Below are positions 3,001 through 6,000 of a stretch of DNA of 30,938 bases, piece by piece; position 1 is the stretch's first letter, and the number at the start of each line of letters is the position of its first letter. Location of the stretch: assembly GCA_046483495.1 (NCBI GenBank), contig JAWODC010000042.1, positions 1 through 30,938 of the forward strand, written 5' to 3'. The position numbers were made by a program. Source of the DNA: Desulfobacterales bacterium. GTDB lineage: Bacteria > Desulfobacterota > Desulfobacteria > Desulfobacterales > UBA5616.

Positions 3001-6000
3001 GCCTTCGTAAGAACAGGCAAGGGAACATGACCAGCAGGTTTCCGCCATTCCGATCATTTCCGTAAGCTTGTCTATGATATGCGAAACCTTTGCCACGCCG
3101 TGGGCATCGGCAACCCAGTGGGATGCGCCGATCACCACGTCCGCCAGTCCGACCTTGCAGCCGCCGTAATTGGAACGGTGAAATCCGGCAAAGGTTTCCA
3201 CCAATGGTCCGGCGAATTCATCCTCTCCGGCCATGAACACCCGTTCCCAGGGCACAAACACGTTATCGAAAATGATAATCGCTTCCCCGCCGACGATGGC
3301 GTATTTGGGATTGCCCGAATCCAGGGGGCTTTCCAGGCGGCGGGTGTCGTTGGTCTGCCGGGAAAAGATGTATTTGACGCCTTTCGTGTTTACCGGTACG
3401 GCGAACGATACGGCATAATCCGAATCCTCTTTTCCCATGGCGCGGGTGGGCATCACGATGATTTCATGGGAATTGACGACACCGGTGATGTGCGCCTTGG
3501 AGCCGGTGACAATGATGCCGTCGTCGTTTCTGTCGACAATGCGCAGATACACGTTCGGGTTTTTCTGCTGGGAGGGCCGCAGGCTTCTGTCCCCGCGCGG
3601 GTCTGTCATCGCGCCGGCGGACATCAGGTCGTGTTTTTGAACATGCCGCAGAAAGGCCTTGAAGTTTTCGTGATAGGATGTCCCGTTTTTCCGGTCCATA
3701 TCGTAGGTGGTGATATACAGGGCATTCAATGCGTCAAGCCCGACACACCGCTGAAAACAGGTGCCGGTTTTCTGGCCGAGCAGCCGCATCATCCGGACTT
3801 TTTTGACCATGTCGTCGATGCTGTGATGCACATGTGTAAACCGGTTGACTTTTTCACCGGTCAGGTTCGACGTCGCCGTCATGATGTCTTCATATTGGGG
3901 GTCATGCGCCAGTTCGTAGGTCATGGCGGCTGTGTGGATGTGTGGGGAAAACATGGGTTGATCCACGACATGCGTAATTTTTTCTCCCATGAAATGAACT
4001 TCCAGTTCGAGCTCTCTCAAGGAATCGATGTATTCTTTTCCGGTCATCAATGTCATTTTTTCAAAGTCTCCTTACGTTTGGCATAAGAGTATGATTTGAT
4101 TGCACAATGGTGTATGCGCGGTAATGGTTGTTTTCCATTTCCATATCATCATCGGGGTGTTTTTGCCAAACAATAAATTTCGTTGGGATGGTTTGGATCG
4201 TTTGGATCGTTCGGGTCGTTGGCCTTGGGTGAAAGCTCGTTCACCATCCGCCTGCTGTTCACTTTTCACTAATCCCCCCCATCCCGGCCTTCCCCCTCCA
4301 GGGGTGAAGGGGACATGTTGCGCCGCAAGTCAGCTGATCGATATGCTTGTATCTTAAACAAGTTAGTAAAAATTGCCGTTCGCTTCGCTCACAGTTTGTT
4401 TTTTGGATAAATATGCTAAAGTGGTGAAAGGGATTTTTCCATTCAATTTGTTTTTCATCAGCACATCTTGAAATGTGTTTTTTTAAACAACAATCAGTAT
4501 ACATCCGAAGGTGAGAAGATTCGATTCCGTTCAAGGCGGCCGGTAAATTTTAATCACAGGAATACATGGAGTATTTTGAGGATTAAAATTTTTCGGCCAA
4601 CGCCGAAATGGAGCGAATCAGCCATTTCTGGATAGGCACCAATGAATCACCTGCAGTGTATTTATCCTTTAAACGAACCATCCTCTTATTTACAAGCGGC
4701 GCGAAGCAGCCGCTTGAACGGACTAATAAGAAAACGGGCATTGGAAAAACTGTCATCAGTCAAAACATGTCCCCTTCACCCCTGGAGGGGGAAGGCCGGG
4801 ATGGGGGGGATAAAGACCCAATCCATTCCGGCTTTGAGACGTAAACGTTGAGCTTTCATCTTGAACTTTAATACTCAACGCTCAACAGCCCATTAACGCA
4901 GCCTTTTTTCCCCGCTGTTCACCGATTCACGACAAAACCCTTCTATCCTCTTGACAAATCCGATTGGAAATCGGATGAATAGAAAACACATCCAAAACAC
5001 CTTCCAGCCATCTAAAAAGGAGGATTGCCATGCCAGAGCTCGAAGCCGATCAAGCTTATCGTAAACTGTGCGACATCATCATGATGCCGAAAAACAAGCT
5101 TTCCATAGAAATCTTGAAAATCCTGTACCCGGAAAAAGACGCAAAAATGCTCGCTGCCGGCCCATTCAACATCGTGCAGGCAGACCGGTATACCATCGAA
5201 GAATTTGCCGAAAAGACCGGTTATCCGGTCGACGAAGTGAAGGAGACCTTCGAACGCCTGGCAAAACGCGGCGTCCTGTTTTGGGTGAGAGACCGCAGGG
5301 ACAACAACAAGAAGAAGTATACCATCCCCCCGCTGTTTCCGGGCATCGTGGAGTATTTCATTGTTTCCCCGCACAACAGCATCGACGAGAGGCGGGCGTT
5401 TGTAAAGAAAATGCATCAAAGGGAAGGCGGGGGAATAACCACCGGTACAATGGATTCGGATTTCAGCATTTTCCGGATCATCCCCTCCATGAAGCCGGAT
5501 CCCGAGTCCCGCGTTGTTGAAATCGGCGAACATCTCGAGTCGGACAAATCGCAGGTGTTCGCCTACCAGGATGTGGTGGAAATCATCAACGAAGCGGGAC
5601 GGTTCGAAAACAATATCGCCGTCATGCCCTGCACCTGCAGACTGATGGCCATGATGACCAAGGAATCACCGGAGTGCAACGCTACCGTGGAAAACTGCAT
5701 GGCCTTCGGCGCCGCAGCGCATTACGTCGTTGAAGAAGGCATCGGACGCAATGTGGATGTCGACGAAAGCCTTGACATCCTGAAGCAGGCGGAAAAGGAC
5801 GGGCTGATTCACCTTTCCACCAATACCGTCAATAAGCATGGATTCATCTGCAACTGCTGTTCATGCTGCTGCGGCATCATCGGTTCATCGGTCAAGATGA
5901 ATCGCCTCGATATTTTCGAAAAATCGGATTATGTACCGGTCATCGACGCGGATGAATGCACCAAGTGCAAAAAATGCATCACGATCTGCAGCTTCCATGC

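Follow-up and report, generated by a model that had tools for sequence, protein, structure and literature searches.

The 143-nt hairpin at positions 4497-4639 of the Desulfobacterales DNA analysed here (a stretch of 30,938 nt, referred to as the window) is very probably an RPE-1-family MITE, non-autonomous and mobilised in trans by DDE transposases, as judged from comparison of sequences. The survey's view of it as MITE-like and non-autonomous, with loops that are conserved and stems that show compensatory changes, is supported by this. The element is short, carries no transposase gene and is present as 184 near-full copies in the source genome (G000). Its ends are common to autonomous insertion sequences (IS), and its flanking duplications are of the type made by the partner IS, though often imperfect in the hairpins. 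RPE-1 itself is already known; homologues across phyla and a transposase for RPE-1 were not found described in the literature searched. The exact matches of ends and duplications name candidate enzymes that can be tested for both RPE-1 and the Desulfobacterales copies.

The imperfect palindrome lies between two divergent genes, one for an HpaB-family protein (2542-4056) and one for a 4Fe-4S protein (5030-6199). As RNA it folds into one long hairpin of -55.3 kcal/mol (z -6.9), a value that none of 200 shuffled sequences reached, and the opposite strand gives -42.4 kcal/mol (z -4.3), confirming the earlier claim of a single hairpin that is stronger on the given strand. The parts of the hairpin and the related features of the window are given in Table 1. 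Repeats with 48-nt G/C-run inverted ends, the family of the host repeat, were seen at 4272-4811, 7868-8548 and 16767-17144, and one set of these ends brackets a DUF559 reading frame at 8078-8464.

Table 1. Hairpin copies, their parts and the host repeat in the window.
Feature	Position	Strand	Evidence
Hairpin, probable MITE copy, subfamily A, 143 nt	4497..4639	+	fold, blastn, subfamily HMMs; model R2 85 bits
Target duplication, 6 bp, left copy CAATCA	4491..4496	+	sequence; empty paralogous sites CAATGA, CAATAA
Target duplication, 6 bp, right copy CAATGA	4640..4645	+	sequence; empty paralogous sites
Left terminal repeat, decayed relative to subfamily majority	4497..4512	+	end comparison
Right terminal repeat, 15/16 identical to ISNCY end of L721	4624..4639	-	end comparison
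Conserved inner-loop motif AAGGCG, 36 nt from left end	4533..4538	+	copy alignments
Conserved tip module, CCGCAG ... TGAGGA type, two substitutions in window copy	4554..4582	+	copy alignments
Conserved inner-loop motif CAACG, facing AAGGCG	4598..4602	+	copy alignments
Second copy, subfamily E	7349..7491	+	subfamily clustering, HMMs; R2 99 bits
Third copy, decayed, subfamily A-like	6446..6588	-	R2 73 bits
Different host repeat, 48-nt inverted ends (4272-4319, 4764-4811), entered by first copy	4272..4811	.	paralog comparison

The window copy gave 182 non-overlapping blastn matches in G000. A core-pattern search of the same genome recovered 116 copies, which fell into five subfamilies and two singletons, and HMMs of the five subfamilies gave 282 matches, 184 of them of at least 120 nt. 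Six of these 184 near-full copies lie within long reading frames, and the description of a multi-copy intergenic repeat was thereby confirmed. Orientation was unbiased, as reported earlier, with 44 near-full copies co-oriented and 39 anti-oriented relative to co-directional neighbours. The loops of the five subfamilies are alike and the stems different. The survey had the stem differing from genome to genome, and this stands, but stems differ between subfamilies of one genome as well. When 36 copies were simply aligned with MAFFT, the covariation of the stem persisted, with changes on both sides in 30 of 41 pairs. No Rfam family reached its gathering score with the window copy; the best match (27.5 bits against a required 60) has an E-value of 0.0027. 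The survey found no copies in its same-genus genome; G156, which belongs to the same genus and may be another genome than the one then searched, holds 21 model matches.

Evidence of insertion was obtained from the flanks, which carry a 6-mer of consensus TANNTA in subfamilies A and B and a TA in subfamilies C and D. Paralogs of the host repeat on contigs C39 and C69 lack the hairpin and have one 6-mer each (CAATGA and CAATAA), indicating that 6 bp were duplicated when the window copy inserted. Across 89 A/B copies the two flanks match above shuffled pairs at positions 1, 3, 4 and 6 of the 6-mer, and do not at positions 2 and 5. Exact 6-mer duplications were present in just 4/21 and 7/29 of the least diverged A/B copies, and the duplications of the A/B hairpins are far less exact than those of the ISNCY elements described below. 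The orthologous gap of G156 contains a different 1.7-kb region and gave no empty site. Outside the order, a Bacteroidales subfamily (L170, L249, L284) has exact 6-bp ATNNAT duplications, and in Chlorobium G155 copies sit inside the ends of other copies, at TTAA-like sites (L313, L316, L318, L326).

No autonomous element or gene was found between hairpin-type ends in G000, and the ends were therefore compared with insertion sequences from elsewhere. When metagenomes were scanned with the A/B end, 122 stretches were recovered, including four distinct elements of 1.67-1.69 kb that are bounded by that end. Their reading frames form one family, matching L721 at 39-65%, and score 439 bits (cut-off 325) with NF033593, an ISNCY family that we take to be group ISDol1. 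These ISNCY elements carry the same 16-bp ends and the same TANNTA duplication as the subfamily of the window copy. The duplication is an exact 6 bp in 11 of 19 ISNCY end pairs, nearly always TANNTA; the other pairs include two that agree at five of six positions, one of 7 bp and two mis-paired ends. What the elements have in common with the hairpin is confined to the termini, and the hairpin core was not found in the ISNCY elements tested. Searched for by protein alone, ISNCY was present in 44 of 301 genomes of the order, in elements that carry A/B ends; an intact transposase occurs, for example, in G291 (L825). A 925-bp IS5 with similar GTG ends, from a genome with abundant A-type copies, was rejected as a partner of A/B, since its duplications are of 3 bp in 49 of 63 end pairs.

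The other end types were matched by IS5 elements. In Tisiphia (G185) a 964-bp IS5 (best model NF033581, in two frames) has 15-bp ends and an A(A/T)T duplication identical to those of all nine 144-nt hairpins fetched (58-86 bits). Relatives of this RPE-type IS5 were found in five more Rickettsiales genomes (6/151 in all). Among the Rickettsiales relatives 24 of 29 end pairs have 3-bp duplications, and three further variants of the end were seen, all of them identical to ends of RPE-1-type hairpins; the end of the IS5 L873 is that of L237 and L270, both positive for TIGR01045. On one contig of G162 the same 16-bp end and the same TTAA duplication are seen at an IS5 (L504; NF033581, 337 aa) and at the hairpins L646 and L656. 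Among TA-type hairpins the commonest have the end of the IS5 L503 (NF033580), which matches L005, L012, L014 and L020, and a Desulfosarcina variabilis IS5 (NF033580) matches one end of L006; in both of these cases the IS and the hairpin come from different genomes. L503 agrees with the D end of G000 at 14 of 17 positions and is not itself flanked by a clean TA. None of the insertion sequences compared has exactly the C or D ends of G000. The ISNCY NF033593 and IS5 NF033580/NF033581 elements have terminal repeats and duplications of the hairpins' type, and differ from the hairpins in carrying a transposase gene.

The outer 15-17 bp of the 140-144-nt hairpin are the terminal repeats of an insertion sequence and the interior forms a core of fixed geometry. 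In the mechanism proposed here, a DDE transposase acting in trans would bind both ends, move the hairpin and leave its own duplication. The putative mover of subfamilies A, B and E is the ISNCY transposase (NF033593, 6-bp TANNTA), and those of the RPE-1-type, GGG-type and TA-type copies would be three IS5 lineages (3, 4 and 2 bp, respectively). This offers a simple reason for the in-frame position of RPE-1 as against the intergenic position of the Desulfobacterales copies. The 144 nt of RPE-1 plus 3 bp amount to 49 codons, which would explain in-frame insertions into genes, while neither 143 nor 142 gives a number divisible by three when 6 is added, which fits the intergenic A and B copies.

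As one possibility the survey had proposed an element mobilised as a single-stranded hairpin, REPIN-like or MITE-like. In such a scheme a Y1/HUH transposase would recognise the bulged tip, and the IS-like ends would be relics or targets. The bulged tip is conserved in sequence and lies at a fixed distance from the ends, the A/B duplications are imprecise, and in G031 one Y1 gene is located between two copies. That gene, however, stands amid other short repeats, no copy lies in the 3.3-kb locus of either Y1 gene of G000, the length of the duplication follows the IS type in four lineages, and derivatives without a tip have been amplified with 4-bp duplications. With ends and duplications matching DDE insertion sequences and the Y1 genes examined lying among other repeats, this proposal was abandoned as very improbable. 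REPIN/RAYT systems resemble the window family as dispersed, intergenic hairpins without genes, while the window family differs by its IS-type ends, by duplications specific to each lineage and in that no cognate Y1 gene was found. The Y1 transposase gene of G031 (L288) is ringed by TTTACC...GGTAAA repeats, possibly a separate REP system.

The distribution of the ends relative to the candidate enzyme was examined in the order. The A/B end occurs in 155 of 301 genomes (a reversed control gave at most one match per genome), at 0 to 658 ends per genome. The highest count, 658 exact A/B-type ends, was that of G212, a genome of 5.5 Mb. Ten or more ends were present in 16 of 38 genomes with ISNCY, a group that excludes six distant matches below 45% identity, as compared to 45 of 263 without it (Fisher p 0.0009, in a test that treats kin as independent and with end counts that are inflated by IS ends). 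Most of the 45 end-rich genomes (of 61) without ISNCY by this query are fragmented assemblies. G000 itself gave no tblastn match to the ISNCY protein, so that its copies are either orphaned or their IS is unassembled; a profile search of G000 gave a single DDE_Tnp_1 match, which lacks such ends, and detected neither DUF772 nor DDE_Tnp_4. None of three DDE families was matched in Chlorobium G155, a genome that has 216 ends. The RPE-type IS5 genome G608 contains at least 24 IS copies and only three weak hairpins, and G528 contains no hairpins.

The family was described by the survey as belonging to one order, and its range proved to be wider. Model R1 was built from 36 Desulfobacterales-type copies and contains no Rickettsia sequence. 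A loose motif scan of public genomes gave at least 120 loci, and of the 80 loci listed from it 53 score with R1 at E <=1e-5; most of the remaining listed loci are chance motif matches without a fold. The R1 matches are hairpins of the same geometry from about ten phyla, by record title Desulfobacterales, Alpha- and Gammaproteobacteria, Bacteroidales, Chlorobium, Balneolaceae, Planctomycetota, Omnitrophota, Nitrospirota, Myxococcia, Treponema, Acidobacteriota and Entotheonella. Within the host phylum R1 matched at least 28 of 151 genomes. No hairpin copy was found on viral contigs, separate scans giving 0 matches, 15 non-hairpin matches and 32 lone GTG ends; among 32 GGG-end matches on viral contigs, the two long pairs examined enclosed no transposase.

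Mean identity among 44 representatives is 40%, and 73 of 76 rows are 140-144 nt long. The geometry of the core is fixed (36 nt, AAGGCG, about 17 nt, GCAG-tip-TGAGGA, about 15 nt, CAACG), and the position of the ends is constant relative to it. The stems of the motif-scan loci pair although stems were absent from the search pattern. In alignment A3, which comprises 87 rows from 86 sources that were pre-selected as hairpin-like and fitted to the structure, with two rows on the reverse strand, 86.5% of the cells are paired as compared to 55% in shuffled and 34-41% in slid controls, and 52 of 57 pairs show changes on both sides. The conservation of the loops in A3 is partly circular, since the loci were chosen by those same motifs.

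The strong covariation of this model-fitted alignment would also be expected of a multi-copy structured RNA gene or regulatory site that does not move, as had been suggested earlier, and in three Pseudomonas genomes one copy occupies the same junction between genes. Against this stand the target duplications, the empty site, the nested insertions and the wide range of end counts within the order. With no orientation bias and no G.T excess in the unbiased count given below, the earlier suggestion of a structured RNA has no support. The RNA-gene reading is largely refuted by the empty site and the IS-identical ends and is the least probable of those considered here, although single copies may have been domesticated. 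In all three Pseudomonas genomes the copy (L217, L222, L224) extends across the stop codon of one and the same gene and no longer has outer arms; it is possibly a fixed, domesticated one.

The Rickettsia palindromic element RPE-1 (Ogata et al., 2000 and 2002) is considered here as it is presented in PMC2229807 and PMC10969869. R1 matches Rickettsia sequences at 38-59 bits, and six of the Rickettsia/Tisiphia matches translate into the RPE1 domain TIGR01045 at 56-102 bits (cut-off 30), all read in the frame of the surrounding gene (HscA, GlyS, a TsaC-type protein and DapE). On the same domain a Legionella copy reaches 36 (cut-off 30). TIGR01045 was not matched by the window copy, L028 or L040, each represented by a single open frame. 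RPE-1 and the window family have in common the length class (a hairpin of about 146 nt), both loop motifs, their spacing and the tip, while the stem sequences are unrelated. The subfamily of the window copy has GTG ends, a 6-bp duplication and an intergenic position, whereas RPE-1 has AGAC-type ends, a 3-bp duplication and lies in frame in genes. Because the Rickettsia matches encode TIGR01045 and the Desulfobacterales frames do not score, the window element is regarded on sequence grounds as a homologue of RPE-1 and not as RPE-1 proper, and the survey's reading of an undescribed family is not supported. In the sections of PMC2229807 and PMC10969869 on these elements, RPE is called specific to Rickettsia and no RPE transposase is named.

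The relation between ends and core can be followed in copies that combine them differently. The Desulfobacterales tip was seen in combination with three types of end, in 11, 12 and 2 copies, and copies with the GGG end have one or the other of two tips; the type of tip tracks the host group and the end types mix, which favours exchange of ends over co-divergence. It is on balance probable that the core changed its ends repeatedly rather than splitting once together with its transposases. Under the alternative, one ancestral MITE diverged alongside the IS5-like and ISNCY transposases, its ends changing with each lineage and never being swapped, and this would account for the constant position of the ends relative to the core; all four partners are DDE enzymes, and the IS5, IS1182 and ISNCY models cross-match. 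The alternative is nevertheless rather unlikely, as the tip goes with the host group and not with the end, to judge from the combinations just given, and on C22 an end-to-end A-type piece is found at the left end of a D-type copy. At this junction, near position 23231 of C22 in G000, the A-type piece abuts the D-type interior, possibly a snapshot of the replacement of an end. In G291, L664 and L669 have A-type outer arms, AAGG/GACG loops and a different tip, suggesting that tips too may be exchanged as modules.

MITEs are usually viewed as deletion products of one parent IS. An interior that is conserved in structure across about ten phyla and combined with the ends of several transposase families departs from this view. 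The MITE reviews PMC2229807 and PMC10969869 state, where they deal with transposases, that the enzymes moving MITEs are mostly unidentified, and the former names RUP of Streptococcus pneumoniae as the one MITE tied to an IS, IS630-Spn1. The evidence for mobilisation in trans given there for RUP, shared terminal repeats and a shared target, is of the same type as that presented here. RUP has one partner, while the present core has the ends of four transposase lineages.

The core can be dispensed with, since Chlorobium G155 has derivatives in several copies that lack the tip, or lack AAGGCG, and yet are flanked by 4-bp duplications, and short end-to-end forms are present in G000. The conserved loops, which the survey in its boldest reading took for the recognition site of a host protein, are missing from amplified derivatives in Chlorobium. 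We tentatively suggest that the core acts at the level of DNA, where the hairpin or a bound host protein may help ends 140 bp apart to meet. Such a role is indicated by the symmetry of the strands, with 63 G.T against 53 A.C mismatches and the unbiased orientation of the copies. Alternatively, DDE movement could be accompanied by selection of the core for RNA, a co-transcribed hairpin being cut or tolerated by host RNases. This is compatible with a DDE-moved MITE and has a precedent in the Correia and ERIC elements, for which cutting or tolerance of the hairpins by RNases is reported in parts of PMC10969869 and PMC2229807. The strand with AAGGCG folds better as RNA, and the model-fitted alignment holds 150 G.U against 75 A.C pairs. 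This G.U excess is treated as a bias and was gone from the unbiased count, in which arms were aligned on Watson-Crick matches only (63 against 53, p 0.40), and the copies again show no orientation bias; selection of the core for RNA is rated as rather unlikely. Among the contigs of four sequencing runs, RNA runs cover 13-19 of 30 bins, with cover of the repeat that perhaps derives from other organisms.

A broader possibility, to which we give somewhat less than even weight, is that an old, pan-bacterial core, from which RPE-1 and perhaps also ERIC and an E. coli palindrome descend, adopts the ends of whichever IS5-like or ISNCY elements are present and so outlives the loss of a transposase. 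A conserved host factor binding the bulged hairpin would then enable the transposition, or the tolerance, of very short elements. ERIC/IRU resembles the window family in its long hairpin, in AAGGCG opposite CAACGC and in a similar tip, and differs in its length of 127 nt and in its spacing. Of 40 ERIC loci, 23 matched the model at the right place with E <1 and six at E <=0.01 (best 36.5 bits). No blastn match of the repeat was found in E. coli genomes, and similarity to the 127-nt ERIC consensus was not seen beyond the weak model scores. ERIC would at most be a cousin of the family. The low-copy E. coli palindrome (L377-L379, including Aeromonas) is presumably RSA and is present in 5426/5426 E. 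coli genomes at one to five places. It scores 37 bits, and 51 bits in Aeromonas; its tip and middle stem are of the Chlorobium type and its AAGGCG/CAACG loop is replaced.

The literature compared comprised passages of PMC2229807, PMC10969869, PMC3733652, PMC11602168, PMC5896051, PMC2759123, PMC2267715, PMC1779305 and PMC9769881. Literature searches and these passages gave no description across phyla and no RPE transposase. YPAL/RU-2, QMITE1/2 and the Cardinium IS982-derived MITE are other families, set apart by the descriptions given of them in such passages. The MITE catalogue of PMC11602168 may list the present elements unnamed.

Several copies outside the source genome were found in particular settings. 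In Planctomycetota (L233) three copies are arranged in tandem with a spacing of 184 nt. A Treponema copy is directly adjoined by a match to the Rfam family TD-2 (L225, 165-264). In two genomes (L290, L291), ORF6N genes have copies at their flanks and lie in islands that also contain Fic or methylase genes.
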